DNA of 64,000 bases, taken from positions 176,769-240,768 of the forward strand of contig JAUSHI010000009.1 of assembly GCA_030648055.1 (NCBI GenBank). Direction: 5' to 3'. Source of the DNA: a bacterium (GTDB taxonomy: Bacteria > Patescibacteriota > Minisyncoccia > Sungbacterales > SURF-37). Made by a program: the position numbers and the translations under genes. Position 1 is the first letter of the stretch, and every line of letters begins with the position of its first letter. Positions 2,976 through 50,426 of this stretch are shown here, piece by piece. The notes under the pieces were generated by a model that worked only from the letters and a program-made list of their open reading frames with translations, searched no databases and was not told where the DNA came from.

Positions 2976-4241
2976 ATGAAGCAGTCACAACTTTTTGGAA
3001 AAACGCTCCGTGAGGCCCCAAAAGACGAGGCCTCCGCCAACGCTGAACTTCTTGAGAGGGGCGGTTTTGTTTACAAAAATTCCGCCGGAATATATTCGTA
3101 TCTTCCTTTGGGGTGGCGCGTTTTACAAAAAATTGCGGGAATTATCAGGGAGGAAATAAACGCTATCGGCGGCCAAGAGCTTTTTATGCCGGCACTCGTT
3201 GAGAAAAAATATATGGAGCCGACCGGGCGATGGGGCGTTGATATTGGGCTTGAGGTAAAAGGCAAGGGTGAAAAAGAAGCCTTGTTTGTTCTCGGTTGGA
3301 CGCATGAGGAAATTTTAACCGCCATCGCCAAACATTTTGTGAATTCATATAAAGACCTGCCGTTTTCCGCCTATCAAATTCAAACGAAATTCAGAAACGA
3401 GCCGAGGGCCAAGTCCGGCCTTTTAAGGGGGCGCGAATTTATGATGAAAGATTTATATAGTTTTCACGCCGACGAAAAAGATTTTGAAAATTATTATGCC
3501 GTGGCAAAAGGGGCTTACGAAAAGATATTTAAGAGGGCCGGAGTTGATGCGATTTATACCGTTGCCGCCGGAGGAGTTTTTACCAAAGCAAACACCCATG
3601 AATTTCAGGTTGTCTCGTCAGTTGGTGAGGATACGGTTTTTATCTGTGAGAATTGCAATTACGCCGAGAATCAGGAAATTTCCAAACTTAAAGAAGGCGG
3701 CGAGTGCCCGAAATGCAAAGGAAAAATTCACGAGAAAAAAGCTATTGAGGTGGGAAATATTTTTCCGCTCGGAATTAAATATTCAGAGGCGTTGAACCTT
3801 CAGTTTATTGACGACGCGGGAAACAAAAAATTTGTGATTATGGGCTCTTATGGAATCGGCCTCGGCCGTCTAATGGGAACGATTGTTGAGGTAAGCCATG
3901 ATGAAAAAGGTATTTTGTGGCCGGAATCAGTGGCGCCTTTTCGCGTGCATTTATTAGCGCTTTCCGGGAAAGACGAAGAGACGGCAAAAACCGTAAAAAA
4001 AGAGGCGGAAAAATTATACGAAGAGCTCTCGGCAAAAGGGGTTGAGGTGTTATATGACGATCGTGTCGCCAAAACGGCAGGAGAGAAATTCGCCGACGCG
4101 GATTTGATAGGCATTCCGTGGAGGGTGGTTGTTTCGGAAAAAACGCTGAAAGAGAAGAGTGTTGAAATCAAAAAGAGAAGCGCAAGTAACGCTGAACTTG
4201 TAAAACTCACGGAAACGGTTCAAATATTGGCAAAAAAATAA
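2976..4241 (+). CDS. proS: Prolyl-tRNA synthetase, short form lacking the INS editing domain
   Basis: Class II motifs (FRNEPRAKSGLLRGREFMMKD, GSYGIGLGRL) and an anticodon-binding C-terminus. A CxxC..CxxC insert sits where INS normally lies. Confidence 0.95.
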   Translation: MKQSQLFGKTLREAPKDEASANAELLERGGFVYKNSAGIYSYLPLGWRVLQKIAGIIREEINAIGGQELFMPALVEKKYMEPTGRWGVDIGLEVKGKGEKEALFVLGWTHEEILTAIAKHFVNSYKDLPFSAYQIQTKFRNEPRAKSGLLRGREFMMKDLYSFHADEKDFENYYAVAKGAYEKIFKRAGVDAIYTVAAGGVFTKANTHEFQVVSSVGEDTVFICENCNYAENQEISKLKEGGECPKCKGKIHEKKAIEVGNIFPLGIKYSEALNLQFIDDAGNKKFVIMGSYGIGLGRLMGTIVEVSHDEKGILWPESVAPFRVHLLALSGKDEETAKTVKKEAEKLYEELSAKGVEVLYDDRVAKTAGEKFADADLIGIPWRVVVSEKTLKEKSVEIKKRSASNAELVKLTETVQILAKK

Positions 4242-7695: not shown

Positions 7696-7721
7696 TTTCT
7701 ATAAATCCAATATCGGAATAG

Positions 7722-7754
7722 CCACCCCAAAACCCCTGCAAAAATCGGCATGAT
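7722..7754 (+). repeat. Cassette-junction motif, copy 1
   Basis: CCACCCCAAAACCCCTGCAAAAATCGGCATGATG; matches the AAACCCTTGCAAAAATCGGCATAATG family. Confidence 0.8.
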
Positions 7755-7781
7755 GGGTAGATTCTGCTGTTATCGTATCCG

Positions 7782-8376: not shown

Positions 8377-8410
8377 AGGTTTATCAAGATTATTTTTGTA
8401 TAAGTAATTT

Positions 8411-8442
8411 AACCCTTGCAAAAAGCGGCATAATGTAGCAGA
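8411..8442 (+). repeat. Cassette-junction motif, copy 2
   Basis: AACCCTTGCAAAAAGCGGCATAATGTAGCAGAAT. Confidence 0.8.
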
Positions 8443-8517
8443 ATTCTCGCGACCATAAGGCGATCGTGCTGGGCTAGTCCCCACTGAGAGCCCTAAAAAT
8501 AGTTGTGTATAAAGCTA

Positions 8518-9168: not shown

Positions 9169-9187
9169 CTTTTTACCGAGATCATAC

Positions 9188-9215
9188 TAAAACCCTTGCA
9201 AAAATCGGTATAATG
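9188..9215 (+). repeat. Cassette-junction motif, copy 3
   Basis: AAAACCCTTGCAAAAATCGGTATAATGG. Confidence 0.8.
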
Positions 9216-9243
9216 GAGCGGGGTGTCTTGCCGAGAGTTAGTT

Positions 9244-9789: not shown

Positions 9790-9812
9790 TTTCTACCGAG
9801 GCCCCTTTATTT

Positions 9813-9840
9813 ATAGGACAATTCCATAGAATTGTCCTAT
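9813..9840. repeat. Palindrome P1 copy a (12-4-12)
   Basis: ATAGGACAATTC-CATA-GAATTGTCCTAT, 28 nt upstream of the GNAT ATG. Confidence 0.9.
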
Positions 9841-9867
9841 GAAGCAATTTCATCTCCTGAACAGTTT

Positions 9868-10329
9868 ATGCTTACAATACGAAAATCTAAAAAACGAGAT
9901 ATAAATAAACTCGCGAAAATTTATAAGCGGGCTTATCATCGTTCAAAAGACGGCGAGGATTGGAGTGTTCCAAAAGCAAGGGCCTTGCTCAATTTTTATT
10001 TCAATCAAAAAACATTTATCGGTCTTACAGCACTTCTTGATGATAAAATGGTTGGCGCATTCTTTTCTTTCGTAAAGCCCTGGCACGACGGGAATCATTT
10101 GGGGGAGGGAGAATTATTCGTTGACCCGGATTATCAGAATCGTAAAATAGGTACGGATCTTTTCTTTCAGATGATCAAGATTGCAGAAAAGAAAGGATGC
10201 ACAATTCACGAGTTGCTTGCTTATGGGAGAGTTGCGCGGTGGTACAAAAAGCTGGGAATTAAGGAGGTCGGTTTAAAGCACATGCAGGGGAAGATAAAAG
10301 ATATCATAAGAAGAATGGGCAGAAATTAA
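9868..10329 (+). CDS. GNAT family N-acetyltransferase
   Basis: MLTIRKSKKRDINKL start and acetyl-CoA motif A (VDPDYQNRKIGTDLF). The TTG at 9832 lies inside palindrome P1, so ATG 9868 is preferred. Confidence 0.8.
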   Translation: MLTIRKSKKRDINKLAKIYKRAYHRSKDGEDWSVPKARALLNFYFNQKTFIGLTALLDDKMVGAFFSFVKPWHDGNHLGEGELFVDPDYQNRKIGTDLFFQMIKIAEKKGCTIHELLAYGRVARWYKKLGIKEVGLKHMQGKIKDIIRRMGRN

Positions 10330-10335
10330 ATATAT

Positions 10336-10367
10336 CCATAGGACAATTCCATAGAATTGTCCTATGG
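10336..10367. repeat. Palindrome P1 copy b (14-4-14)
   Basis: CCATAGGACAATTC-CATA-GAATTGTCCTATGG, 7 nt after the GNAT stop. Confidence 0.9.
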
Positions 10368-10385
10368 AGTAATTTCACCCTTTTC

Positions 10386-10432
10386 CCACCCCGAAGACCA
10401 CACTCAAAACTCTTGCAAAAATCGGCAGAATG
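10386..10432 (+). repeat. Cassette-junction motif, copy 4 (diverged)
   Basis: CCACCCCGAAGACCACACTCAAAACTCTTGCAAAAATCGGCAGAATG. Confidence 0.7.
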
Positions 10433-10440
10433 TTTATTGA

Positions 10441-10464
10441 ACAATTCCATAGAATTGTCCTATG
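10441..10464. repeat. Palindrome P1 copy c (left arm truncated)
   Basis: ACAATTC-CATA-GAATTGTCCTATG. Confidence 0.8.
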
Positions 10465-10473
10465 CTCTGAAGG

Positions 10474-10513
10474 CCACCCCCAAACCCTTGCAAAAATCGG
10501 CATAATGTAGCAG
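10474..10513 (+). repeat. Cassette-junction motif, copy 5
   Basis: CCACCCCCAAACCCTTGCAAAAATCGGCATAATGTAGCAG. Confidence 0.8.
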
Positions 10514-10631
10514 GGTCTTTGCGATCTCAACTAAGATTTCTTAATAAGGTATGGGAAGTTGTCTTCAAAAATGCTTTAATGATTTTATTGTTGGTAATCT
10601 AATACTGGATGGGCTAGGCGCCGTTGATTAT

Positions 10632-15381: not shown

Positions 15382-15466
15382 GGGAGCTGGTTTAAAGTTT
15401 AGTACGTAGATATATTTGTTTTGTCTACGTGCTGATGGCTCTAATAGCGTTTACGAGTGCTATAGC

Positions 15467-15500
15467 AAAACCCTTGCAAAAATCGGCATAATGTCGCAGA
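15467..15500 (+). repeat. Cassette-junction motif, copy 6
   Basis: AAAACCCTTGCAAAAATCGGCATAATGTCGCAGA. Confidence 0.8.
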
Positions 15501-15517
15501 ATGCCCCTGTAGTTATG

Positions 15518-15648
15518 CCGGGTAGTGAAAATTCGAATAGTCGCAAAGCGACAAAGAAAGGGTAGTTTTCATGTCCTGGTAGAGCAATATCTCATTCTTC
15601 CGCTTCTTAAGTTTTATGAATAAATTAATTCGAATTTCTACTACCCGG
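15518..15648 (+). promoter_or_regulatory. Family-1 leader element A: long closing helix ending 1 nt before the mreB ATG
   Basis: 5' arm CCGGGTAGTGAAAATTCGAAT pairs with 3' arm ATTCGAATTTCTACTACCCGG. The interior holds a GTCGC-AAA-GCGAC hairpin. The same arms occur at 33483-33690. Confidence 0.7.
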
Positions 15649-16757: not shown

Positions 16758-17537
16758 ATGACACCAAGAGACATTAAAAATATTGAATTTTTAATATTTA
16801 TAGTAACCGCCGGGTTGCTTGTTTTTTTAAGCATTGTCGGCGGCCTTCGTCCGCTAACAAATTTGGTTTCGCGCGTTACCGTTCCGCTACTTTCTTTTTC
16901 CACCAGTATTTTTAGAACCACCGGAAATTACCAAACTCTTCAGGATGAAAACGCCAAACTTAAAAGCCAGCTTGCTGACGCCGATTCTCTAAAAAAAGAG
17001 AATGAAAATTTGCAAAAAGCGCTATCGCTTGGTTATGAGGAAGGGCGGAGAATTCTTCCGGCATCCAGGATTGGGTTTTATCGTTTTTTTGATAACGAGA
17101 TTATTATTATTGATCGTGGCGTTGAGGCGGGTGTTGCCGCGGGCGATATTGTTCAGACCGCAGATAAAGTATATGCGGGCAAGGTAATTTCAAGCACTTC
17201 GGGCCGAGCCGATGTTTTGCTTGTGACAAGCCGGAATCAAGTTATTGATGTTACATTTACAAATTCAAATATTCGCGCGAGGGCGCGGGGTATTAACGGT
17301 AGAGAATTCGCGATTGATTTTGTTCCTGAAAACGCAGAAATACATAAGGGCGATCTTTTTATCGTGACTCCGAAGGCGGGGAATAAGGCATCAAACCTCG
17401 TGCTTGGCGAGATTCGCGAAATATCGTCTGACGAAAGCCATGTTTTTAAAATAATACGCGCCCTTCACCTTTTTGATTCTCTGGGCGACGCGACTCTTTT
17501 TGTCTCTCCGTCAGATAAATTATTACCTCGGTATTAA
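16758..17537 (+). CDS. mreC: Rod-shape protein MreC
   Basis: N-terminal TM, then coiled-coil (LQDENAKLKSQLADADSLKKENENLQ), then beta-rich domain. Position after mreB. Confidence 0.8.
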   Translation: MTPRDIKNIEFLIFIVTAGLLVFLSIVGGLRPLTNLVSRVTVPLLSFSTSIFRTTGNYQTLQDENAKLKSQLADADSLKKENENLQKALSLGYEEGRRILPASRIGFYRFFDNEIIIIDRGVEAGVAAGDIVQTADKVYAGKVISSTSGRADVLLVTSRNQVIDVTFTNSNIRARARGINGREFAIDFVPENAEIHKGDLFIVTPKAGNKASNLVLGEIREISSDESHVFKIIRALHLFDSLGDATLFVSPSDKLLPRY

Positions 17538-17666
17538 ATTTCACAACTCACGCCACAGCAAGGCGTTTCCTGCCTGCCGGCGCTTATTACGAGATGGTTC
17601 TATTCGGGCCACGCGCCTTGCGGATGATATGGTAAATTATGCTCCTGTTCTTATTTTGTTATACTG

Positions 17667-17792
17667 ATTAAGGCGAAATTAGTGAGGGGGTGAAAAGCGT
17701 TTAAATAGCCTTTCGCTGGTTTTCCGAGAAGACCGCGAAGCGGTCCTCGCGGGACTAAACCCGGGAAAATAATTTGTAGCTACTCGCTTAAT
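17667..17792 (+). promoter_or_regulatory. Structured leader element C upstream of mreD, containing the conserved module also found at 33503-33580
   Basis: Closing helix ATTAAGGCGA/TCGCTTAAT. Module 17688-17765 has three helices, each with compensatory differences from the copy at 33503-33580. Confidence 0.65.
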
Positions 17793-17807: not shown

Positions 17808-18320
17808 ATGAATTTTTTTATAGCCATTTTTATTTTTACCGTTGCTTTATTTTTAGAGCTTGTTTTTGTGCCAAAAATTTTGGGAGTTTTTCTTCCTTTG
17901 TCGGTTTGGGCCGCGGCCGCGGTTTTCGCTACGTTTAATACGCGGCGGGCTGTTATTTTTTCTCTTGTGGCCGCGTTTTTGGAGACACTTTTTTTGCCCA
18001 ATTTCGGCGGGTTTTTCTTTTTTATTTTTCTCGGAGCGGTAGCCGCGGTATTTTTATTCAGACACTGGTTTGACGGTGTTGGTTTTGTCTATGATTTCGC
18101 GGCTTTAGTGGTGGCTCTCTTTTTTTGTGAATTTTTATTGCCGCTGGTTCTGGTGTTTTTAAACCCTTACGGCTTCGGCAATCCGGCCCTTCCATTGAGT
18201 TACGGTATGGTTATTTTGCCAAGCGCGTTTATTTTTGATGTTTTTTTTGTGTTGTTTTTCGGCCTGATTCTGTATTTTTATGAAAGCGGGCGGAGCGTTA
18301 GACGCATGAAATATGTTTGA
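17808..18320 (+). CDS. mreD: Polytopic membrane protein in the MreD position
   Basis: 170 aa, 5-6 hydrophobic helices. Located between mreC and mrdA and overlaps mrdA by 8 nt. The call rests on synteny. Confidence 0.55.
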   Translation: MNFFIAIFIFTVALFLELVFVPKILGVFLPLSVWAAAAVFATFNTRRAVIFSLVAAFLETLFLPNFGGFFFFIFLGAVAAVFLFRHWFDGVGFVYDFAALVVALFFCEFLLPLVLVFLNPYGFGNPALPLSYGMVILPSAFIFDVFFVLFFGLILYFYESGRSVRRMKYV

Positions 18321-31757: not shown

Positions 31758-33455
31758 TTAGTGGGATTCAAACGAAATAAAATCCCCGGGCGCGCTCGGT
31801 TTTAATTCAGGAAAGCGTTTTTTGATTTCTTGAATGAGTGTTTTGTCTCCAGAATTTAAAAGCAATATGGCGGTTTTTTCTTTTTGTCCGATTGCCAGCC
31901 CGTCAAGCGTGGTCAGGTATTTAACATTTTTAGCGCGCCTCTTTTCTTCGGAAAATGTGTCGCTTATAAACATGGGCGTCTGGGCCGGTGCGGGTAGGCC
32001 GCGGATCAGATTGCCATTGAGGTTCACTATTATTATTTTTTTGGTTTCTTTAGGGAGCCCATTTATGTATTCGCCTATATGGGTAAGGTCGGTTGAGAAG
32101 GCGTAATAAGTATTAATATTATTCGCGAAACGCAAAAAGTATGTTTGCCACGCGTTGAAAGCGATAAATAAAAGTAACAGGGCTAAAAGCAGGGCTGCTT
32201 CTTTTTTTAAGCGGTTTAATTGGCGCCGATAGACTTCCCATTTCGGATTTTCGGATGCGCGGTTAATATAATCGCGCACACTTGTCCAAAGATATTCCGC
32301 ACCCCATCCGGCCAAAATAAATACGGGAACAATAAGGCCGATGGAACGAAGCGCGTGGGGCAGACCTTCGCGGGTGAGGGTCGCGGGAAGGAGCATGAAG
32401 AAAAGCCATATTAAAATAGTCCATGCGGCGAGTTTTTCATCCGAGTCTTCATTTTCTTTTTGTTTATTTTTAAAGAAGGCCCTTTTTATGGCAAGAACGA
32501 GGCCTATGGCAAAAAATATGGCGACCGGCCAGAAAAGCTCCGGCTGGCAGGCGAAATTATGCCTCGGATTGCAGTCGCCCCGCCAGAAAAACATCTGCGT
32601 TGTAAGGCCGTTTGATTTTACGAATTCAAATAAAGGGTTTGCCGCGGAAAAAATAGAAACCTGCTCGCTTCTTCCAAGAAAATCTTGCGGATTTTGGAGA
32701 AAATAATATCCGATTGGCAGAGCAACGACGAAAGCGACAAAAATAAAGAGCGTGATGGCGCACGGCGCGCAAGATTTTTTAGCTGTGCCATTAGTGTCCA
32801 CCGTAACGGTATTTGGTCTCCACCACCGCCAAAAATAAATCGCGAGGGGGAGGGCAACCACAAATGGCATGAAGCGGAACGCAATATAGGTATGAAGGCC
32901 GAGACCGAAAAAAATTCCCGCGAATACCAAATCGCTGATTTTGCTTTTACGGAGTCCTTTAAGCAGAAAATATATTCCGAACGCGGAGAAGAACGGCACA
33001 GAAATAGCTCGGAAGCCGATTCGTGAGAAATTAATATGCCAAAAACTTGTTGCCAGAAAAAAAGATGCAAAAAGTGCTACGAGTGTCGCGCGCCTTGGTT
33101 TGTCCCTAAAAAGCTCACGCGCCAAAAGATAGACGCCGAAAATTGTGAGCGAGCCGAAAAGCGCGGAAACGACGCGAAGTGTCCAGGCGTGTTGTCCTAA
33201 TAGCCACAGCGAGAGCGCCTGTATATTTATGAATAGCCCCTCACGGCCGTTGTTTTCCGGATAGAAAATTTTCCAGCCCAGGACTGGTCCGCCTTTGGCG
33301 GAAAAATCGGTATTATAAAGCGCCTCAACGGCATTGTTGCCGTTTGTGGCCTCGTCCGGATATAAGCCGGGCGGCGTTTGGTTAATCAGATAAAAACGAA
33401 AAAAAACACCGAGTGCCAGAATCATGATTATTAAGATAACCTCTCGCCGCTTCAT
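31758..33455 (-). CDS. GT39/GT83-type (PMT/ArnT-like) membrane glycosyltransferase, second paralog
   Basis: 565 aa, polytopic. First-loop PPGLYPDEATNG DE motif. Confidence 0.85.
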   Translation of the reverse strand: MKRREVILIIMILALGVFFRFYLINQTPPGLYPDEATNGNNAVEALYNTDFSAKGGPVLGWKIFYPENNGREGLFINIQALSLWLLGQHAWTLRVVSALFGSLTIFGVYLLARELFRDKPRRATLVALFASFFLATSFWHINFSRIGFRAISVPFFSAFGIYFLLKGLRKSKISDLVFAGIFFGLGLHTYIAFRFMPFVVALPLAIYFWRWWRPNTVTVDTNGTAKKSCAPCAITLFIFVAFVVALPIGYYFLQNPQDFLGRSEQVSIFSAANPLFEFVKSNGLTTQMFFWRGDCNPRHNFACQPELFWPVAIFFAIGLVLAIKRAFFKNKQKENEDSDEKLAAWTILIWLFFMLLPATLTREGLPHALRSIGLIVPVFILAGWGAEYLWTSVRDYINRASENPKWEVYRRQLNRLKKEAALLLALLLLFIAFNAWQTYFLRFANNINTYYAFSTDLTHIGEYINGLPKETKKIIIVNLNGNLIRGLPAPAQTPMFISDTFSEEKRRAKNVKYLTTLDGLAIGQKEKTAILLLNSGDKTLIQEIKKRFPELKPSAPGDFISFESH

Positions 33456-33482
33456 TATTAATGTATTATACTATATATAGGT

Positions 33483-33690
33483 CAGGTAGTGAAAATTCGA
33501 CTGGGTGAAAAGCGTTTGAATAGCTTTTCACGGGTTTTGCGAGAAGTCGCCGCAGGCGACCTCGCAGCAATAAACCCGGGACGCATGGGCGGCAAATCAC
33601 TAGTCGAATAATATCTGGAGGTAACACGTGGAGTATCGCAACTCCGATGATACAAAAGTATTAATATTTAAGTCGAATTTCTACTACCTG
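33483..33690 (+). promoter_or_regulatory. Family-1 leader element B (composite): same closing arms as element A, with the conserved structured module inside
   Basis: CAGGTAGTGAAAATTCGAC pairs with GTCGAATTTCTACTACCTG, which ends 2 nt before ATG 33693. The module is at 33503-33580. Confidence 0.7.
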
Positions 33691-33692
33691 GT

Positions 33693-34109
33693 ATGGCTGA
33701 AGATTCAAAAACACCAGAAAACGCGCTTCCGGAAGAGATAAAGGAACTTGAGCGTATGCTTGAAGAAAAAAAACGAACGCTGGCCGAGAGAGGCGAAGAG
33801 TTGGAGCACAAGGAGGTTTTTAAACAAGCGTTTTTGGAAAAATATAAAGAGGTCATGCCTCCTGCTTTGCCGCCTTCTCCTGCTCCGAGTGCTCCTGCTC
33901 CAATGGCAAAAGCGGGTGATATGGTACAGGGAAAAGCCGAAGAAGAACTGCAATCTCTTATCAGGCTTGCCTTTGAAAAAGGAATTCGTTCGGCGATTGA
34001 TAAAGCAAAGCGCGAGAGCCCGTGGCTTTTGGATGAGCTTCACGATCGGCTTATTGACGAATATTATCAAAAATTAGTTCAGGCAAAACAAATTAAGGAA
34101 TCTTCATGA
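33693..34109 (+). CDS. Hypothetical acidic coiled-coil protein with Pro/Ala-rich linker
   Basis: 138-aa ORF with a 4-nt overlap with the next gene. No family recognised. Confidence 0.55.
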   Translation: MAEDSKTPENALPEEIKELERMLEEKKRTLAERGEELEHKEVFKQAFLEKYKEVMPPALPPSPAPSAPAPMAKAGDMVQGKAEEELQSLIRLAFEKGIRSAIDKAKRESPWLLDELHDRLIDEYYQKLVQAKQIKESS

Positions 34110-36529
34110 TTTCCGATTCAACGCTCTTTTATCTGTACATTGTCGCCGTTTTTGCGGCATTGGTTTTTGGTTTATCTTTTTGGATTTTACGGCGTGGCCG
34201 TTCAAAGAAAGACATATCGCGTTCTTTCAATTTAAAACTTTTTCAGGTTGTCTTACCCAAAGCAAGCCCCAAAGAGCCGCTTTCTCTTGACCAGACCCGT
34301 GAAAGAATCGCGATTATGGAAAAGTTATACGGCCATCTAAAAGAGGCCGTGCCTAAGGGCTGGTTTTGGAGGGTTGAGCCCACATTTGCCTTTGAGCTGA
34401 CCGTGCCGCATATTGGTGAGGAAATTATTTTTTATGTTGCTGTCCCCAAAATCCTTTCGCAATCAATTTCTAAAATTATTGAGGGCGTCTTTCCCGATGC
34501 CCAAGTTACTCCGGCGCGTGATTACAATATTTTTAATCCGGATGGTACTGCCGTTGGAGCGGTTCTGAATCTTGGAAAAAATGATTTTTTGCCCATCCGC
34601 ACTTATCGGACTCTTGAGGCTGATCCTCTGGGTGCTCTCTCTAACGCTTTTTCAAAATTAGCCGGCGAGGGCGAGGGTGCTGTGTTTCAAATAGTGGTTC
34701 GTCCTGCTCCCGATAAATTTTCAAAGGAAATTTTTTCTTTCGCGAAAAAAGTTTTTAGCCGCGGCAGTTTTGAAAAGCCCGGAGCCTTCTCCGAGGTAAT
34801 GGGCGAACTTTTCGGCTCTTCTTCACCCAAAAAAGAAACAAAAGAAGAGCCGCGGGCCCGCGCGCTAACTCCCAAAGAGGAGGAAATGGTTAAAGCTATT
34901 GAAAACAAAGGTTCCAAGCCGCTTTTTGAGGCGAATATTCGCTTGATTGCTTCGGCCGCTTCCGAAGCAAGGGCCTTTGAGATTTTGAAAAATATAGAAA
35001 CCACCTTTTTGCAATTTGAAGACCCCGCGCTAAATAAATTTGTAACCGAGGAAGTAAAAGGTGCGGTTCTGAAAAATCTTTTTTACCAGTTTTCGTTCAG
35101 GATGTTTAATGAATCAAACGCTATGATTTTGGGCTCGGAAGAGCTGACTTCGCTTTTGCACTTTCCTAATGTTCCACTGGAAACCCCCAAAGTAAAAACA
35201 TTGAAATCCAAAGAAGCCCCACCTCCGGCAAATCTTCCCCGCGCTGGGCTCGCTCTCGGTTACAGTCTTTTTCGTGGAGAAGAAACAACGGTGCGAATTA
35301 CTCCGGAGGACAGGAGAAGGCATTTTTATATAATCGGGCAGACCGGCACCGGAAAAACCGCGTTTATGGAAAATATGATCAGGCAGGATATTGAGGCTGG
35401 AAAGGGTGTCTGCTTCATTGACCCGCACGGAGATACGGTTGAGAAAATTCTCGGGCTTATTCCGCCCCATCGTCTTGACGACGTAATTTATTTCAATCCG
35501 GGTGATACCGCGCACCCCATGGGATTAAATATGCTGGAATATGACCCGCGCTATCCAGAACAAAAAACTTTCGTGGTCAATGAATTATTTTCAATTTTTC
35601 AAAAGCTTTATGGCGCCGTTCCGGAATCAATGGGGCCGATGTTTGAACAGTATTTCAGAAACGCTACGATGCTGGTTATGGACGACCCGTCTTCCGGGAA
35701 TACTTTGCTTGAAATTTCGCGCGTGATGTCGGATAAGGAATTCCGCGATTATAAAATTTCAAAAGCCACGAATGTCGTGGTGAAAAATTTCTGGACACAG
35801 GTTGCTGAAAAAGCGGGGGGCGAAGGCGAGCTTAAAAACATGGTGCCTTATATCACTTCCAAGTTTGACGTGTTTTTGGCGAACGAAATCATGCGGCCGA
35901 TTATCGCGCAGGAAAAGTCCGCGTTTAATTTCCGCGAGGTGATGGATAATCAGAAAATTCTTCTCATCAATCTTTCAAAAGGCCGCCTTGGAGATCTCAA
36001 TTCTTCTCTCATCGGCTTGATTATGGTCGGCAAAATTCTTATGGCCGCTCTTTCGCGCGTTGATATTGCCGATCAGGAGGCGAGAAAGGATTTTTATCTC
36101 TACATTGATGAGTTCCAAAACATAACAACAAAATCAATTTCCACGATTCTTTCCGAGGCGCGGAAATACCGCCTTGACCTTGTCATTGCTCATCAGTTTA
36201 TAGGCCAGCTTGAGGAGGACATTAAAAAAGCGGTTTTCGGAAACGTCGGTTCCATGGTTTCTTTCCGAATTGGTTCGGATGACGCTGAATTTATTTCAAA
36301 ACAATTCATGCCCGTATTCGGTCCCGAAGACCTCTTGAATGTTGATAATTATAATGCTTTCATAAAATTACTTATTAATGGGCAGACCTCGCGTCCATTC
36401 AATATCCGTACTTACGCTCCGGTTTCCGCGAATATGCAGATTGCCGAGACGGTGAAAAACATGTCCCAGCAGAAATACAGCAGAGAGCGTGAAGAAGTGG
36501 AAAGAGAGGTAATGAGCCGCTATCGTTAA
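34106..36529 (+). CDS. Membrane-anchored P-loop ATPase, type IV secretion coupling protein-like (VirD4/TraD/TraG-type)
   Basis: N-terminal TM, Walker A IIGQTGTGKT and Walker B FYLYIDEFQNI, followed by RKYRLDLVIAHQ. Confidence 0.7.
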   Translation: MISDSTLFYLYIVAVFAALVFGLSFWILRRGRSKKDISRSFNLKLFQVVLPKASPKEPLSLDQTRERIAIMEKLYGHLKEAVPKGWFWRVEPTFAFELTVPHIGEEIIFYVAVPKILSQSISKIIEGVFPDAQVTPARDYNIFNPDGTAVGAVLNLGKNDFLPIRTYRTLEADPLGALSNAFSKLAGEGEGAVFQIVVRPAPDKFSKEIFSFAKKVFSRGSFEKPGAFSEVMGELFGSSSPKKETKEEPRARALTPKEEEMVKAIENKGSKPLFEANIRLIASAASEARAFEILKNIETTFLQFEDPALNKFVTEEVKGAVLKNLFYQFSFRMFNESNAMILGSEELTSLLHFPNVPLETPKVKTLKSKEAPPPANLPRAGLALGYSLFRGEETTVRITPEDRRRHFYIIGQTGTGKTAFMENMIRQDIEAGKGVCFIDPHGDTVEKILGLIPPHRLDDVIYFNPGDTAHPMGLNMLEYDPRYPEQKTFVVNELFSIFQKLYGAVPESMGPMFEQYFRNATMLVMDDPSSGNTLLEISRVMSDKEFRDYKISKATNVVVKNFWTQVAEKAGGEGELKNMVPYITSKFDVFLANEIMRPIIAQEKSAFNFREVMDNQKILLINLSKGRLGDLNSSLIGLIMVGKILMAALSRVDIADQEARKDFYLYIDEFQNITTKSISTILSEARKYRLDLVIAHQFIGQLEEDIKKAVFGNVGSMVSFRIGSDDAEFISKQFMPVFGPEDLLNVDNYNAFIKLLINGQTSRPFNIRTYAPVSANMQIAETVKNMSQQKYSREREEVEREVMSRYR

Positions 36530-42587: not shown

Positions 42588-43676
42588 ATGACGCAGGTAT
42601 TGTATAGAAAATATCGGCCGAAAGATTTTTCGGAAGTGATTGGGCAGGAGCATGTGGTTAGGCCCATTACTAATGCCATTAAGCTTGGCAAGGTTGCGCA
42701 CGCTTATTTATTTTCCGGCCCGAGGGGGGTGGGGAAGACCACCATTGCGCGCCTTATCGCCAAGGCCGCGAATTGCCAGGGTGCTTCAGCGAAGCCTTGT
42801 AACAAATGCGCCCCTTGCGTTTCTTTTAACGAAGGCAAAGTTCTTGATTTGATTGAAATTGACGCGGCGTCAAACCGTGGCATTGATGAAATCCGCGAGC
42901 TTCGCGAGTCAGTGAGGTTTTCGCCAGCCGGTGGCGGTAAAAAAGTTTATATTATTGATGAAGTGCACATGCTTACCAAAGAAGCGTTTAACGCGCTTTT
43001 GAAAACATTGGAAGAGCCGCCGGAGCACGCGATATTTGTTCTTGCCACAACCGAGCTTGATAAAGTTCCGGCAACAATTATTTCGCGTACCCAGCATTAT
43101 GATTTTAGGCGCCCGCAAATGCCGGAAATCGTGAAGCGTCTGGAAATTGTGGCCGCGCTGGAAAATGTCAGTCTTGAAAATCAAGCTGCGCATACTATTG
43201 CTTTTGTTGCCGAGGGTTCGCTTCGCGACGCGGAAAGCATTTTAGGGAAAATTCTCGCGATTGAAGATAAAAAAGTAACCGAAGAAGAAGTCAACGAGAT
43301 TTTGGGAGTACCGAAAAGGGCTCTTTTACGGGGTATGTTTCAGAGCGTCGTAGCTCGTGATTCAAGCAGTGCCTTCAGGCTTGTGAATGATTTGGTTAGC
43401 GGCGGATACGACAATGCTTTCGCGATAAAAATGTTAATACAATATTTTCGCAATATGCTTCTTTTGCGGATTGATCCGACATTAACCGAAATCATCAAGC
43501 AGGAGATGCCGGAGGAAGACATGATGTTTGTCGTGGAGCAGGGGAAAGCATTTTCGGACCTGAAAGTAAAGCACGCGCTTTCCACCCTGATTGATGCTTT
43601 GGCAAATTTAAAAAAATCCCCGATTCCCCAGCTTCCGTTAGAGCTCGCCCTTCTGGAAATCATCCAAAAAGAATAA
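42588..43676 (+). CDS. dnaX: DNA polymerase III gamma/tau subunit (short form)
   Basis: Walker A GPRGVGKTT, zinc module CQGASAKPCNKCAPC, DEVHML box and SRTQHYDFRR sensor. Confidence 0.9.
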   Translation: MTQVLYRKYRPKDFSEVIGQEHVVRPITNAIKLGKVAHAYLFSGPRGVGKTTIARLIAKAANCQGASAKPCNKCAPCVSFNEGKVLDLIEIDAASNRGIDEIRELRESVRFSPAGGGKKVYIIDEVHMLTKEAFNALLKTLEEPPEHAIFVLATTELDKVPATIISRTQHYDFRRPQMPEIVKRLEIVAALENVSLENQAAHTIAFVAEGSLRDAESILGKILAIEDKKVTEEEVNEILGVPKRALLRGMFQSVVARDSSSAFRLVNDLVSGGYDNAFAIKMLIQYFRNMLLLRIDPTLTEIIKQEMPEEDMMFVVEQGKAFSDLKVKHALSTLIDALANLKKSPIPQLPLELALLEIIQKE

Positions 43677-43680
43677 ATAA

Positions 43681-43718
43681 ACAACATTCTCACATTCTTG
43701 AGAATGTGAGAATGTTGT
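43681..43718. repeat. Palindrome P2 copy 1 (18-2-18)
   Basis: ACAACATTCTCACATTCT-TG-AGAATGTGAGAATGTTGT. It lies 5 nt after the dnaX stop and 15 nt before the ArsR ATG. Confidence 0.9.
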
Positions 43719-43733
43719 GGTAGGTTGTGGGGT

Positions 43734-44021
43734 ATGGGAAAAGCAATAAAAACCGCAAAACAGCTTGAGAGGCACCTAAAGGGCATTGCCAATCATCGGC
43801 GTATTGAAATTTTGTCGTTAGTTGCCGAAAGTAATGGAGTTTCGCTTGAGGATATCGCCGAAAACTTGGGTTGTAATATAAAGACCATTTCTGAGCACGC
43901 CCGGCGTTTGGCGCAATCCGGCTTGATTCGTAAAGAGTATCGGGGTAGGCGGGTAATTCACACGTTGTCGCCTTACGGTAAAATTTTTTATAAGTTTTTA
44001 TCAACATTCTCACATTCTTGA
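43734..44021 (+). CDS. ArsR/SmtB-family winged-helix regulator (paralog 1)
   Basis: LKGIANHRRIEILSLV..SLEDIAENLGCNIKTISEHARRLAQSGLI. The 3' end reads through palindrome P2 copy 2. Confidence 0.75.
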   Translation: MGKAIKTAKQLERHLKGIANHRRIEILSLVAESNGVSLEDIAENLGCNIKTISEHARRLAQSGLIRKEYRGRRVIHTLSPYGKIFYKFLSTFSHS

Positions 44022-44037
44022 GAATGTGAGAATGTTG
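44002..44037. repeat. Palindrome P2 copy 2 (17-2-17)
   Basis: CAACATTCTCACATTCT-TG-AGAATGTGAGAATGTTG. Confidence 0.9.
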
Positions 44038-44063
44038 GAGAGTGAGGAGAAAGAGGGTTTTGT

Positions 44064-44134
44064 TGCGGGATCGTCTAATGGTAGGACACTGCCCTTTGAA
44101 GGCAGGTATCTTGGTTCGAATCCAAGTCCCGCAG
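44064..44134 (+). tRNA. tRNA-Gln (anticodon UUG), CCA not encoded
   Basis: Acceptor TGCGGGA/TCCCGCA, anticodon stem-loop CTGCC-CTTTGAA-GGCAG and T arm TTGGTTCGAATCCAA. A T-run follows. Confidence 0.85.
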
Positions 44135-44171
44135 TTTTATATAGAAAAAAGGTGGGGAAAAATAGTAAACT

Positions 44172-44326
44172 AACATTCTCACATTCTCAAGAATGTGAGA
44201 ATGTTGTGGGAAAGAAGTCCGGCAGAAATAACATCCTTACAAACTGGAGTTTGTAAGGATGATGTTGGGGATGGGGAGGGTGTTTGGGGGAATCTGTGCC
44301 GTGGGCGCATTAGTTTTGGTTAACAA
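44172..44326 (+). repeat. Direct repeat, left copy (~155 bp, begins with palindrome P2 copy 3 with CA centre)
   Basis: ACATTCTCACATTCT-CA-AGAATGTGAGAATGT, then AAGAAGTCCGGCAGAAATAACAT.CTTA.AAACTGGAGTTTGTAAGGATGA.. It is shared with 45132-45290. Confidence 0.85.
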
Positions 44327-44405
44327 GCCCCGTAGCTTTGGAGGAGCGAGTTGTATAAATTGGCGGGTGAATCACCAGTCTTTACGCGGTTTTACTTAGT
44401 GCCAT

Positions 44406-44442
44406 GTTAACCATTGACGTGTCGGTTAACATAGATTATAAT
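44406..44442 (+). promoter_or_regulatory. Promoter of the HTH-doc operon with an inverted repeat bracketing the -35
   Basis: TTGACG-17 nt-TATAAT, then 8 nt to ATG 44451. GTTAACC..GGTTAAC lies around the -35. Confidence 0.6.
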
Positions 44443-44450
44443 TTGCAAAT

Positions 44451-44702
44451 ATGGATAAAGAATTTACTACAAGCGAAGTGGCAAAGCTTTTGGGTATAAG
44501 CCGGGTAGCAGTCTTTAAGAAAATTAAATCCGGCGATATTAAGGCAAAGAAAATAGGGCGCAATTTTGCTGTGGATAAAAAAGATTTACCGGAAATACTT
44601 GGTGCGGTATTGCGTGAAGACGAAAAGCGAGAAATAGAAAAAGCCGTCAAAAAAACGGTTAGAGAATACGGTCAAACATTAAAGCTATTAGGTAAAGAAT
44701 GA
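44451..44702 (+). CDS. Helix-turn-helix (excisionase/MerR-like) DNA-binding protein, probable antitoxin
   Basis: FTTSEVAKLLGISRVAVFKKIKSGDIKAKKIGRNFAV. There is a 4-nt overlap with the Doc gene. Confidence 0.7.
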   Translation: MDKEFTTSEVAKLLGISRVAVFKKIKSGDIKAKKIGRNFAVDKKDLPEILGAVLREDEKREIEKAVKKTVREYGQTLKLLGKE

Positions 44703-45121
44703 AACCCTTAACAATTGTTGAAGTAGAATACGTGGCGCATAGCTTAGCGCGCGAGATTATGACATGGGACGAGCCAATTCCTGATTTCGGCACACGCCGC
44801 CCTAATATATTGGAAGGATGTCTCGTGACCCCATTTCAGTCATTTAGCAGAAAAAATTTATACGAAGGGCTAATTGGAAAAAGCGCGATCCTTTTTTATC
44901 TCATGGTCAAAAACCACCCATTTCAGAATGGCAATAAACGAATTGCAATGACTACTATGTTGTATTTTTTGGATAGAAATAAAAAATGGTTAAGAGTTGA
45001 TAATCAAGAGCTTTATAATTTTGCAAAATGGGTAGCAGAATCAAACCCAAAATTAAAAGCTGAAACGGTGGTGGCAACAGAAAAATTCATCAAAACTTAC
45101 TTAATAGATTATGAAAATTGA
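44699..45121 (+). CDS. doc: Fic/Doc family toxin (death-on-curing type)
   Basis: HPFQNGNKRIAM matches the Doc H-x-F-x-[DN]-[AG]-N-K-R motif. Confidence 0.8.
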   Translation: MKPLTIVEVEYVAHSLAREIMTWDEPIPDFGTRRPNILEGCLVTPFQSFSRKNLYEGLIGKSAILFYLMVKNHPFQNGNKRIAMTTMLYFLDRNKKWLRVDNQELYNFAKWVAESNPKLKAETVVATEKFIKTYLIDYEN

Positions 45122-45131
45122 AGGATGAAAG

Positions 45132-45290
45132 GACATTCTCACATTCTCAAGAATGTGAGAATGTCGCGATAAAGAAGTCCGGCAGAAATAACATACTTAT
45201 AAACTGGAGTTTGTAAGGATGAGGTTGGGGAGAAGGGTGGGGTGGTGGGGGGAATTTGAGCCATGGGCGCTTTAGTTTTCGGTTAATAAG
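45132..45290 (+). repeat. Direct repeat, right copy (begins with palindrome P2 copy 4 with CA centre)
   Basis: Roughly 85% identical by eye to 44172-44326. Confidence 0.85.
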
Positions 45291-46080: not shown

Positions 46081-47604
46081 TTAAAATAATTTCGGCACTA
46101 TTTTTGTGTTGTCTACTCTTTTTTTTGCCATGCGTATATAGTCTGGGTTAATCTCAAAACCAATATACGATTGCCCTAATTCTTTTGCGGCTACGCATTC
46201 TGAACCGGTGCCGACAAATGGTATTAATACAACACCATTTTTTTTAGGTATAGCCGATTTAATTAATTTTCTTGAAAGTTCAAGTGGTTTTTGTGTCGGG
46301 TGTTTCATAATTTTGTGTTCGCTGTGTTTTTGTAACTGCCGTGGTTCAAAGACGCCATTGCAAGTTTTACACAAAAACCACCGCTCAATCATTCCCGCTC
46401 CTCCGGCCAAGGCGGCGATTTTGAGGACATCTCGTGGTAATGCGCCTCCTGCGTGAGCTTTATAGACGGTTTCTAGCCCGCTTTTACTAAATCTGCCAAT
46501 TGTTCCTTTTCTTATTTTACCGGCGGCTCCGTTTAGAAAGCCATCAGTGTAGGGCTCCCTAACTTCATCTCTATTGAAAACCGGTTTGTCTTTCCAGGCA
46601 CAGATAATAGCTTCGTGGCTTCTCTGCCAAAAATTGAGTGAAGCAACATTTTTATTTGTGTAATGCCAAATAAGCCATCGTTTATGGATTGGCATTTCAA
46701 CCGAAAGGTGGGCTAAAATCTCACTAAATCCATATATAAACATTGTTCCGGTGGGTTTCATAATTCTTATAGATTCATTGATCCATTTTTTGCACCACGC
46801 GACATATTCACTTAATTCTCTTTTGTCGATATTATTTCCAAAATCCTTTCCAATATTATACGGAGGATCAATAATGATAACATCGCAACTTTCGTCAGGA
46901 AGTTTCCTTAGTTCTTGAATGGCATCTCCTAAAATTATTTGATTGAGTGGTAATTTTCTTTCCCTCCTTTGTTCTTTTGTTATTGTGATTTTTTCTACCT
47001 GTAGTTCTTCCTCGTTTTTAATAACGTCAAGGACGACTCCTTGAATTTTAATATCTCGGTCTTTTCTTAAAATAATCGGTTCAAAAGTTTTATTTGCCGG
47101 TTGGAGGCGGATATGTCCTTGTTCGCGATAGTATTTTTTGAGTGTTGCCTCGTGATTGTCAATAAGTGCAACGACTTTTTGTCCATTTTCAGCTGTTTCT
47201 TGTTGGCGCACTAAAACAACATCTCCATCATTTATATTTTCATCAATCATGCTATTGCCGACTACGCGGAGGGCGTAAACTTCTGATGATGGAGGAATTT
47301 TGTTTTTTGGTACAGCAATAAATTCTTTTTGCTGGATTGCTTCAATAGGTTCGCCAGCGGCAATGGTGCCGAGGAGGGGAATGCGTATAAGTTTGGTTGG
47401 AGTGTTCACTATTCTTATTCCTCGCGCGCGGCCGGGCTCTTTTTCCACATATCCTTTATTCTGTAATGCGGTCAGGTGTTCGTGGGCAGTGGAGGGGGAG
47501 ATATGGAATCGTCGCGCAACTTCTCGTTCCGATGGCGCTACCTCCTTTTTAGATATCGCTTTTGCGACGAAATCTTTTATTTGTTTTTGGCGAAGCGTAA
47601 GCAT
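46081..47604 (-). CDS. Fusion protein: complete LexA (wHTH plus S24 peptidase) joined to a beta-class N4/N6 DNA methyltransferase
   Basis: Single 507-aa ORF. It contains a LexA HTH, Ala-Gly site LLGTIAAGEPIEA, Ser (VVGNSM) and Lys (ATLKKYY). These are followed by IIIDPPYNIG (motif IV) and then IPFVGTGSECVAA (motif I). Confidence 0.85.
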   Translation of the reverse strand: MLTLRQKQIKDFVAKAISKKEVAPSEREVARRFHISPSTAHEHLTALQNKGYVEKEPGRARGIRIVNTPTKLIRIPLLGTIAAGEPIEAIQQKEFIAVPKNKIPPSSEVYALRVVGNSMIDENINDGDVVLVRQQETAENGQKVVALIDNHEATLKKYYREQGHIRLQPANKTFEPIILRKDRDIKIQGVVLDVIKNEEELQVEKITITKEQRRERKLPLNQIILGDAIQELRKLPDESCDVIIIDPPYNIGKDFGNNIDKRELSEYVAWCKKWINESIRIMKPTGTMFIYGFSEILAHLSVEMPIHKRWLIWHYTNKNVASLNFWQRSHEAIICAWKDKPVFNRDEVREPYTDGFLNGAAGKIRKGTIGRFSKSGLETVYKAHAGGALPRDVLKIAALAGGAGMIERWFLCKTCNGVFEPRQLQKHSEHKIMKHPTQKPLELSRKLIKSAIPKKNGVVLIPFVGTGSECVAAKELGQSYIGFEINPDYIRMAKKRVDNTKIVPKLF

Positions 47605-48741: not shown

Positions 48742-48980
48742 ATTTTGACGTGAATTATGAATAATTAAGAACATTCGAACCTTCTTTTATTATACCACGG
48801 GCCGCCCTTACGATTATCCACAATGGATGTTGTGGTTGGGACTTACATATTATGCGTTGAGGCGGGCCGATTTCCGAGCTTTACGGAGTTATTCTTGAAC
48901 TCACAGTATTCTCACATACTTTATAAGGGGGCTGGGGTATGAATTGAATCGTTTTTTCGTTGCTTGCGGTGATTCATTGT

Positions 48981-49004
48981 ACAATTCCATAGAATTGTCC
49001 TATG
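48981..49004. repeat. Palindrome P1 copy d (left arm truncated)
   Basis: ACAATTC-CATA-GAATTGTCCTATG. Confidence 0.8.
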
Positions 49005-49116
49005 ATGCATGAGGAGATATTTGTGTATAAGAGCGCGAGTAAAAGAGTGGCTAAATCAAGGCAAAAATAAACAAAGATGTCTATTTTTAGCAAAGTTTTT
49101 AAAGGTGTATAAAAAT

Positions 49117-49890
49117 ATGAAAAGTATTGAGGGTAATTTTAATAGCCGTGGCAAAGAAGGATTATCAAGGCGTGAGTTTTTGGGGGTTCTCGGCGGTGCG
49201 GGCGCCATGGCCTTTTCTTGCGGTCCAGGAAAAATATTTGCGCAGGGGGAAGGCGAGAGACCTTCGCGTTATGAAAAGCATGAGTGGTTTTATTCGTCGG
49301 AAGAGATGGCTAGAGTTTATGAGCAGGAATACAACGGCGAAAAAATTCTGCAAAATACTGTAAGGAGAGAGAGTGATGCCTGGGTTGGTACTATTTATGG
49401 AAAAAAATTTGAAGTGTCAAATGAATTTATTGAGAAAACCTTAGGTCATTTGCGCGACATGCTTACACAAAACGCTGCGCGTTACATTTTCAGGTTGGAT
49501 GCTTTTCATGGCCATCTTTTTGTTCCAACAAGTGAATTTGAGGCTAGATTCTCGCCATTGGAGCCCCATGAACAAGCGCGCCTCATAATGGATTATTATT
49601 CGCTTGGGGTGCTTTATCATAACAGTGAACATTTAAAAATTGACGATCAGGATCGCGAAGCCGCGATATTATATAAAAGAAGAAATGTAATCGGTTGGTA
49701 TGATGGCCGTTCCATCGCAATTTTACCCTTGCCCAAAGGCAAAGAAAGCGCGGCTCCTATTCCAAGTGACATGAATGATCTTTATCCTTATTTAAGGTTT
49801 GCTGCTCATAAAGATGGTGTTTTTTCACTTAATTCGGGGGGTAGAGAAATTCGGCTTGATTTAACTTTTGATGATATGACCTATTATTAA
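49117..49890 (+). CDS. Hypothetical exported protein with twin-arginine-type signal
   Basis: MKSIEGNFNSRGKEGLSRREFLGVLGGAGAMAF (S-R-R-x-F-L). The upstream part of the track ORF is probably untranslated. Confidence 0.55.
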   Translation: MKSIEGNFNSRGKEGLSRREFLGVLGGAGAMAFSCGPGKIFAQGEGERPSRYEKHEWFYSSEEMARVYEQEYNGEKILQNTVRRESDAWVGTIYGKKFEVSNEFIEKTLGHLRDMLTQNAARYIFRLDAFHGHLFVPTSEFEARFSPLEPHEQARLIMDYYSLGVLYHNSEHLKIDDQDREAAILYKRRNVIGWYDGRSIAILPLPKGKESAAPIPSDMNDLYPYLRFAAHKDGVFSLNSGGREIRLDLTFDDMTYY

Positions 49891-49953
49891 TTCATGGGGG
49901 GCGATTAACGGCTCGAAGTTTTTAGTTTATTGAAAGATTTTTTAGTGGTTATA

Positions 49954-49977
49954 AGGACAATTCTATGGAATTGTCCT
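49954..49977. repeat. Palindrome P1 copy e (centre inverted: TATG)
   Basis: AGGACAATTC-TATG-GAATTGTCCT, 58 nt upstream of the ArsR paralog 2 ATG. Confidence 0.85.
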
Positions 49978-50035
49978 ATGATGTTTGTGTAAGTGTAAGA
50001 ACGGCGAGTAAAAGTAACTAAGTTAAAACAAAAAT

Positions 50036-50296: not shown

Positions 50297-50359
50297 TTTT
50301 TGGAAAATTTCGCGAAAAATATAGGGATAAAATTTTCAATATTTATGTTTTATTATTTC

Positions 50360-50387
50360 ATAGGACAATTCCATAGAATTGTCCTAT
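50360..50387. repeat. Palindrome P1 copy f (12-4-12)
   Basis: ATAGGACAATTC-CATA-GAATTGTCCTAT, 39 nt upstream of ATG 50427. Confidence 0.9.
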
Positions 50388-50426
50388 AAAATAATTTTGT
50401 TCCGTTACTCATAAAATAGATATTAT

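Follow-up and report, generated by a model that had tools for sequence, protein, structure and literature searches.

Two 5′ leaders in a 64,000-nt stretch of a Sungbacterales (Patescibacteriota) genome (GCA_030648055.1, contig JAUSHI010000009.1, positions 176,769 to 240,768 of the forward strand; hereafter the window) carry the same structured module, one ahead of the gene at the mreD position (copy A) and one, at 33.5 kb, ahead of a gene for a 138-aa protein (copy B). On balance we take this module to be the core (~75-80 nt) of an undescribed, structure-constrained interspersed repeat of Patescibacteria, similar in kind to miniature inverted-repeat transposable elements (MITEs), REPs or PATEs, which would be inserted and lost at hairpin loops and would be a passenger at the two window sites. 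Among the origins offered when the module was first noticed (cis-regulatory leader, protein-binding site or mobile RNA element), a mobile element fits best.

A repeat search of the window returned copies A and B as a 79-nt direct repeat (D8) of 81% identity (coordinates in Table 1), which confirms the ~78 nt of similarity reported originally at these sites. The 22-mer GGGTGAAAAGCGTTTRAATAGC, common to both, occurs exactly twice in the window, even allowing 3 mismatches, and not at all in 100 shuffles. Both copies adopt one fold, in which hairpin P1 (9 bp, 9-nt loop) precedes a composite hairpin made of P2 (GGUUU/AAACC), P2a (CGAG/CUCG, past a 2-nt bulge) and the 6-bp apical hairpin P2b. Strand-by-strand pairing agrees with the original prediction that P1 is perfect in copy B and has one wobble and one mismatch in copy A, and the P2 and P2a helices are kept in both folds, as claimed. 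P2b reads GACCGC-GAA-GCGGUC in copy A and GUCGCC-GCA-GGCGAC in copy B. Its pairing is indeed perfect in both, but the description of the two sequences as entirely different was overstated: three of six pairs are swapped on both sides and three are identical, with a different middle loop base. Copy B alone has a folding energy far beyond that of shuffled sequences (z = -4.5), whereas that of copy A alone is not clearly beyond them (z = -1.2), and the structural argument therefore rests on covariation among homologues and not on the energy of copy A.

Such homologues are found outside the window. Scanning species-representative genomes with a 22-base pattern gave four copies, all at 66-86 bits, three of them in a Candidatus Sungiibacteriota metagenome-assembled genome (MAG) and one in a MAG labelled Saccharibacteria. 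A degenerate P1 pattern returned 15 loci on metagenome contigs, and 10 of these hold 11 real copies (62-86 bits, one divergent copy at 28.6 bits). The other five were discarded as chance matches, with weak P1-only scores from the covariance model (CM) in sequence that reads as coding by eye, and a second match in L020 falls on a palindromic contig end and is likely an assembly artefact. At least 15 copies thus lie beyond the window, in other Patescibacteria MAGs and in groundwater metagenomes. Copy density amounts to two in the 64-kb window, at least three in the Sungiibacteriota MAG and at least eight in one metagenome. Inside the window, neither a CM built from copies A and B (CM 1) nor one built from 18 sequences (CM R2, run unfiltered) finds true copies beyond A and B. 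A third candidate (3054-3155, 16.9 bits with CM 1) was rejected as chance, given that it lies within the prolyl-tRNA synthetase gene, lacks P2b and is missed by R2. Phage, plasmid and viral collections returned no match by blastn and two pattern scans.

An alignment of 18 sequences (A3) shows that the fold is under selection. In A3, 95.7% of cells pair, compared with 81.4% in column shuffles (none of 500 reaches the observed value) and 32-45% when pairing partners are slid. Both partners vary in 15 of 24 pairs, among them 6/6 in P2b and 4/5 in P2, the latter exemplified by GGGUUUU/AAACCC, GGGCAUU/AAUGCCC and GGGUGUA/UACACCC, and U-A and C-G are swapped among copies at the base of P1. Support is weaker for P2a, where the A in A3 column 48 is conserved and its partner variable. 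The inner stem of P1 (GAAAAGC/GCUUUUC) and its loop GUUUNAAUA are almost invariant, except that the central loop base takes all four letters. The proposal of a conserved structured element with compensatory changes, made from two copies, is therefore borne out on 18 sequences from several genomes, where the further homologues preserve the helices. A small protein was considered as well, one frame being open through both window copies, yet copies are not alike in the length of their hairpins (+2, +2 and +6 nt), and the +2 / +6 nt indels in homologues break that frame; indels that are not multiples of three imply that the module is not coding.

The module occurs several times per genome at unrelated sites. 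Most often it occupies the apical loop of another hairpin, formed by long inverted arms with an AT box or by the D-loop of a decayed tRNA gene, or else beside an inverted copy of itself. With flanks scored as local-alignment inverted matches against shuffles, 9 of 15 copies lie within inverted arms (z = 2.9-14), all of which carry an AAAATT/AATTTT box; RNAduplex flank energies were uninformative, as shuffles score equally. Each window copy had been described as enclosed by an outer helix. For copy B this stands: its arms are real (z = 2.9, matched by 3 of 200 shuffles) and its 221-nt leader folds as a single closed domain (-82.1 kcal/mol, z = -6.0). For copy A it does not, the helix ATTAAGGCGA / TCGCTTAAT (9 bp, with a bulge) being at chance level with a best inverted match of 14 versus 14.4 +/- 1.8 in shuffles.

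Homologous hairpins exist both filled with and empty of the module. The hairpin GGGAAACCCGAGCCGTAGCGTAAGG-GA-GGGTTCCC is empty in L010 and has the module in its loop in L007 and L009p. One arm family, ACCCCGC..AATTTTGC / GCAAAATT..GCGGGGT, is common to L002, L003, L004, L008 and L015, with compensatory and U.G changes on the module strand, and it also holds other cargo, namely an intact tRNA-Ile (L014) or a module-less interior (L005:2407-2557). At L005:4350-4578 the arms and framework of L002, L004 and L008 enclose a 40-nt hairpin in the module's place. Within the window, the leader of mreB has arms like those around copy B, and the CM finds no module in it. The site of copy A can be compared with a single orthologous site (L001), which encodes the one relative of MreD in the protein collection (45% identical); here mreC and mreD overlap, with zero spacer. 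Judged from these comparisons, the module appears as a discrete unit, gained or lost mostly where an existing hairpin has its single-stranded tip. The enclosing arms vary among copies and enclose other cargo, and they may be a landing site instead of the ends of the element. About ten copies have NGG before P1 and NGG after P2, identical in copy A, L017 and L009p; in most others two of the three bases match, and four copies do not fit.

Further arm-like sequences were observed. In the mreB leader the 3′ arm of the type found around copy B (family 1) ends 3 nt before the ATG, and the arms contain GTAG...CTAC, REP-like; the family-1 5′-arm sequence also occurs alone at 2955-2975, directly before the start codon of ProRS. 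Between the module element and tRNA-Ala at L003:3680-3720 (+) there is a cargo-less AT-box hairpin, ACAAATTTTGAATCC-ATAA-GGATTCTAAAATTTGT, resembling the empty hairpins that elsewhere seem to be occupied by the module.

Decayed tRNA genes are a second kind of host. In L005, L013 and L014 the module begins straight after the ...AGTGG of a tRNA 5′ part, which is the D-loop position. The first 18 nt of the L013 host and ~14 nt past the module closely match an intact tRNA-Ala located 57 nt downstream. At L014:700-990 (-), the module lies in the D-loop of a decayed outer tRNA-Ile(GAU), whose anticodon loop holds an intact, arm-flanked tRNA-Ile; the 3′ half of the outer tRNA comes after the inner one. 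Without the module and the inner insert, this host aligns end to end with the inner tRNA-Ile, and ARAGORN calls it tRNA-Ile(GAU) when trimmed and idealised, although not when untrimmed. A comparable nesting at L005:6540-6745 (+) was also noted, in which a 106-nt insert separates positions 35 and 36 of a tRNA-Arg(UCU) gene and is made up of short inverted arms plus a further tRNA-Arg(UCU) that is itself intact; once the insert is removed, ARAGORN calls a perfect tRNA-Arg(UCU) from the outer gene. The intact tRNAs of L014 and L005 lie within arms CCCCGC..AAAATTTT / AAAATTTT..CGGGG.

As to which strand folds, all helices together contain 6 G.U versus 8 A.C cells. Combining the per-pair table with the overall counts, we attribute all eight A.C cells to the conserved-A column 48, which would leave 6 G.U and no A.C in the other helix columns. 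In 12 of 15 copies a C-G pair closes a GNA triloop on P2b (GAA, GCA, GGA, GUA). In 6.1 kb of element sequence, GCGAAGC occurs 11 times on the module strand versus 2 for GCTTCGC (0.37 expected), and C-GNA-G 59 times versus 17 for C-TNC-G. The GNA/TNC asymmetry, the GCGAAGC excess and the wobble pattern therefore identify the + strand as the folded strand; at the level of sequence a single folded strand is established, but not that this strand is DNA. The mini-hairpins d(GCGNAGC) and d(C-GNA-G) are known for their exceptional stability, with RNA counterparts that are far less stable, and DNA mini-hairpins of this type are found at single-stranded DNA (ssDNA) priming sites and hairpin promoters (PMC13037366; PMC3201870). 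As a lead, the GNA mini-hairpin loops suggest that the module may act as ssDNA. The + strand of the window is G-rich throughout (skew +0.09 to +0.16), which by the common interpretation of GC skew makes it the lagging-strand template.

Table 1. Features of the window and settings of homologous copies. L-numbers denote homologous loci, whose contexts are oriented on the module strand.
Feature	Position	Strand	Description	Support
Copy A	17688..17766	+	In mreC-mreD spacer; P1 and P2/P2a/P2b	Repeat D8; CM R2 90.5 bits, E 5e-18
Copy A hairpin P1	17690..17716	+	Strands 17690-17698 / 17708-17716, GUGAAAAGC / GCCUUUCGC; 9-nt loop GUUUAAAUA; one U.G, one A.C	
Copy A composite hairpin	17718..17761	+	P2 17718-17722/17757-17761; P2a 17725-17728/17746-17749; P2b 17731-17736/17740-17745; GAA triloop 17737-17739	
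Outer-helix 5′ strand claimed for copy A	17667..17676	+	Partner 17784-17792	At chance
Extended -10-like box TGTTATACT	17657..17665	+	22 nt upstream of copy A	Predicted from sequence
Gene downstream of copy A	17808..18320	+	mreD by position	No Pfam hit
Copy B	33503..33581	+	In leader of 138-aa gene / TraG-like operon	Repeat D8; CM R2 97.8 bits, E 1e-19
Copy B hairpin P1	33505..33531	+	Perfect 9 bp, 33505-33513 / 33523-33531; loop GUUUGAAUA	
Copy B composite hairpin	33532..33577	+	P2 33532-33537/33572-33577; P2a 33540-33543/33561-33564; P2b 33546-33551/33555-33560; GCA triloop 33552-33554	
Copy B 5′ arm CAGGTAGTGAAAATTCGACT	33483..33502	+		
Copy B 3′ arm AGTCGAATTTCTACTACCTG	33671..33690	+	Ends 2 nt before ATG 33693	
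Partial second 3′ arm copy AGTCGAATAATATCTGG	33602..33618	+	Alternative partner of the 5′ arm	So paired in the 141-nt fold
-10-like TATACT	33467..33472	+	10 nt upstream of copy B 5′ arm	Predicted from sequence
Genes downstream of copy B	33693..36529	+	138-aa protein without family match, then 807-aa TraG/VirD4-like ATPase	
mreB leader	15520..15646	+	Arms GGGTAGTGAAAATTCGAAT / ATTCGAATTTCTACTACCC as around copy B, no module	Repeat D9; fold z -5.2
L002			~270 nt upstream of 23S rRNA	
L003			Upstream of tRNA-Ala(UGC)	
L005			Upstream of tRNA-Ala(CGC)	
L013			Upstream of tRNA-Ala(GGC)	
L014			Upstream of tRNA-Ile(GAU)	
L017			Upstream of pyruvate-kinase-like gene	By eye
L004			Upstream of epimerase-like gene	By eye
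L008			Antisense within infC-rpmI-rplT operon	By eye
L010			Between opposite-strand genes	
L020			Faces convergent gene	
L009			Two unlike copies head to head (inverted pair)	

The window itself contains housekeeping genes. In an mreB-mreC-mreD-PBP2 cluster, 270 nt separate mreC (16758-17537) from the gene at the mreD position, and copy A occupies this spacer; copy B is flanked by a divergent PMT_2-type glycosyltransferase gene and the gene for the 138-aa protein. Shine-Dalgarno sites are almost absent, and many genes start 7-10 nt past a TATAAT-like box, which suggests that the mRNAs of this genome may be mostly leaderless; given this spacing, leaders of >100 nt would be exceptional. Such boxes close to the ATG are seen, for instance, at 31758-33455 (-), 60774 and 54226-55044 (-). 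The TGTTATACT box upstream of copy A was not called by a sigma-70 scan, which requires a -35 box. Since both copies stand between a -10-like box and a start codon in a near-leaderless genome, they would be carried as transcript passengers. Within the leader of copy B (33617-33739) we also noted a GGAGG 7 nt before a GTG at 33629. This GTG would open a putative 36-codon open reading frame (ORF) that runs, in a different frame, into the beginning of the 138-aa gene; a Shine-Dalgarno sequence is odd for this genome.

The model that we favour would have the module spread, or be lost, as a discrete DNA unit in the manner of a MITE, REP or PATE. Some structure-specific enzyme would recognise the folded single strand, and single-stranded hairpin loops would be the preferred landing sites. 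Copies A and B would then ride in the mreD and 138-aa/TraG-like transcripts, lengthening and structuring their leaders.

Several observations weigh against this model. No transposase, integrase or reverse transcriptase domain was found among ~50 window proteins scanned. The core lacks terminal inverted repeats, the differences between filled and empty hairpins are compatible with loss as well as with gain, and the NGG at either side, a possible duplication of 2-3 nt, is equally explicable as conserved junction bases. Only ~17 copies are known in all, many of them on short contigs. The case for ssDNA over RNA is built on loop chemistry from the literature, and the excess of copies with the module on the G-rich strand is weak (10 of 15 loci, 10:5). 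P1 is identical over 23 nt among genomes whose proteins are, by eye, only moderately alike, which purifying selection on a functional RNA explains as well as recent spread does. In addition, the next gene downstream has the module's orientation for 9 of 12 scorable copies, which alone is not significant, and 5 of 16 lie beside tRNA or rRNA genes; both fit a role as RNA.

The last points lead to the strongest competitor, a functional structured RNA, either a small stable RNA released by cutting the long stems around it, as seems to hold for tRNAs of these genomes, or a protein-binding or processing signal that, for example, trims leaders to near-leaderless mRNAs. We regard it as a serious rival, though less probable than a mobile element. 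Strong covariation and the + strand-specific features are what such an RNA would show, as is the near invariance of P1 sequence across genomes; the five copies next to stable-RNA genes are just upstream of tRNA or 23S genes, and the intact tRNAs of L014 and L005 have arms of a like kind. The 3′ arm also ends 2-12 nt before the start codon in copy B, the mreB leader and L017, in a near-leaderless genome devoid of Shine-Dalgarno sites, and an A/T-rich -10-like box precedes many 5′ arms. It accounts poorly for several differing, nested and inverted copies per genome, for copies antisense to operons or inside decayed tRNA genes, and for presence or absence in homologous hairpins. Copy A, moreover, has no significant enclosing stem, and GNA triloops are not a favoured RNA loop (PMC13037366).

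A more speculative proposal, to which we give a small share of credence, unites the module and the arm-flanked tRNA units, such as the nested tRNA-Arg(UCU) of L005, as an undescribed class of elements homing to single-stranded hairpin loops (tRNA D- and anticodon loops, palindrome apices). They would be tolerated because long flanking stems let the cell cut them from the transcript, restoring tRNAs or near-leaderless mRNAs; such elements would be intron-like in RNA and transposon-like in DNA.

It is improbable that the module is not a transposable unit but an ssDNA signal, whether of the host or of DNA coming in, for example a priming site of the primase/ssi type or a hairpin promoter. The module does have a strand-specific multi-hairpin architecture with mini-hairpins of the GCGNAGC type, which have been linked to G4-type origins, ssiA and N4 hairpin promoters (PMC13037366), it more often occupies the G-rich strand, and copy B precedes a TraG/VirD4-like gene. 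Nesting in tRNA pseudogenes and other repeats would nevertheless be unexpected for a signal in host replication, the bias in orientation is weak, and similarity to phage, plasmid or viral sequences is absent from the collections searched.

We consider a gene-specific cis-regulatory leader (riboswitch or protein-binding attenuator) for mreD and the 33.5-kb operon very improbable, and the idea of a regulatory device shared by the mreD and TraG-like genes is not supported. Both window copies are on the sense strand of 5′ leaders, past -10-like boxes, and a conserved core with variable peripheral helices is aptamer-like. However, the genes downstream of the 17 copies have no common function and include tRNA, 23S rRNA and sugar-metabolism genes (protein-coding ones outside the window being identified by eye from ORF translations), and several copies are antisense (three to their neighbours) or lie between convergent genes. 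No terminator or other expression platform, such as one sequestering the start codon, was found after copy A or copy B, there is essentially no Shine-Dalgarno site to sequester, and a relative does without the mreC-mreD spacer altogether. Rfam gives no match even at E <= 10. Just as improbable is a duplex-DNA operator in which a dimeric regulator binds the palindrome GAAAAGC-N9-GCTTTTC of P1 and the rest hitch-hikes: the P1 stem sequence is almost invariant beyond the needs of pairing, yet the 9-nt spacer, which is asymmetric, matches the half-sites in conservation, P2, P2a and P2b covary to keep pairing that a duplex site does not need, and the GNA/TNC asymmetry points to one folded strand.

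Comparison with known families agrees with the original remark that the module belongs to none that is recognised: the Rfam scan gave no family match, by gathering score or at E <= 10. Searches with Rfam 15 returned for the window only the tRNA at 44064-44134, for the two leaders (E <= 10) nothing but snoRNA/lncRNA hits at chance level (E > 5), and for 14 homologous loci only tRNA, rRNA and tmRNA. ARAGORN and Rfam call the neighbouring tRNAs, never the module as a tRNA or tmRNA. The literature search found no relevant description of a repeat, MITE or nested tRNA in the candidate phyla radiation (CPR).

Like a MITE, the module is short, non-coding and present in several copies per genome at unrelated sites, with presence/absence at homologous sites (L010 vs L007/L009p; L005 vs L002/L004/L008; the mreB leader; L001), and like REPs and PATEs it has a strand-specific hairpin structure. 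Correia (NEMIS) elements of Neisseria and ERIC/IRU elements of enterobacteria are ~100-150 bp non-coding, multi-copy intergenic repeats that are co-transcribed with adjacent genes, form RNA hairpins, are found in either orientation and may import promoter-like boxes or processing sites. They are defined by terminal inverted repeats (Correia also by a TA duplication) and have hosts in other phyla, whereas the module is an asymmetric, internal three-helix core with variable arms. With REP/BIME/REPIN elements (RAYT) and IS200/IS605-related PATEs it shares hairpins kept over exact sequence, one active strand, a presumed ssDNA substrate, inverted doublets as in REPINs and possibly an absent or minimal target-site duplication. 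It differs in having two unlike hairpins instead of similar end hairpins and in landing in hairpin loops and tRNA D-loops, which is not a described REP/PATE property. The REP signature GTAG/CTAC is present in the family-1 arms of the window only, not in the module, and no RAYT or TnpA gene is found among the scanned window proteins. Rfam candidate motifs and small self-cleaving ribozymes have a similar conserved core, compensatory peripheral helices, many copies and varied contexts, but the module has no Rfam 15 match. From these comparisons, the module seems to work most like Correia/ERIC-type transcribed palindromes and REP/REPIN or IS200/IS605-derived elements.

Group I introns deserve a separate comment, having been described at position 35/36 of tRNA genes in Patescibacteria (PMC13011429). 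The phylum and the interruption of tRNA genes are shared, and the nested tRNA of L005 is at that very site; the module, in contrast, occupies the D-loop of decayed, not intact, tRNA genes. As a candidate, a group I intron was rejected: the ~78-nt core is too small, as is the 106-nt nested insert, and there is no RF00028 hit.

Other repeats and one gene of the window were noted in passing. Six copies of AACCCTTGCAAAAATCGGCATAATG stand upstream of genes (7721-7755, 8401-8452, 9181-9232, 10398-10449, 10473-10524, 15459-15510) and are promoter-like, with an unusually short spacing from the TTGCAA to the CATAAT box. Four copies of a 32-nt near-perfect palindrome, ACATTCTCACATTCT(T/C)(G/A)AGAATGTGAGAATGT, lie at 43659-45171 on both sides of the tRNA at 44064-44134, and a second palindrome family, ATAGGACAATTCCATAGAATTGTCCTAT, has six (9808-10475, 48971-50399). 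A 73-nt repeat of 82% identity (59039-59111 and 61756-61828) ends at the start codons of two unrelated genes, one LigT-like 2H phosphoesterase (59104) and one GH42-like (61821), and may be another shared leader or insertion. A single ORF at 46081-47604 (-) combines LexA DNA-binding, Peptidase_S24 and N6/N4 DNA methylase domains, an unusual fusion.

The genomes of Patescibacteria are very small, yet introns and insertions interrupt some of their stable-RNA genes. Very few non-coding elements of these bacteria have, to our knowledge, been described, and to these we add a covariation-supported structured family that is not in Rfam. Under either a mobile or a functional-RNA reading, the module should not be annotated as a regulator of mreD. 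If it is mobile and hairpin loops are where it lands, it would account for lineage-specific spacers like the 270-nt mreC-mreD gap, odd 5′ leaders in a leaderless genome, and the decayed and nested tRNA genes that confuse annotation. If instead it is a processed RNA or a processing signal, it would bear on the maturation of tRNAs and mRNAs in these organisms.

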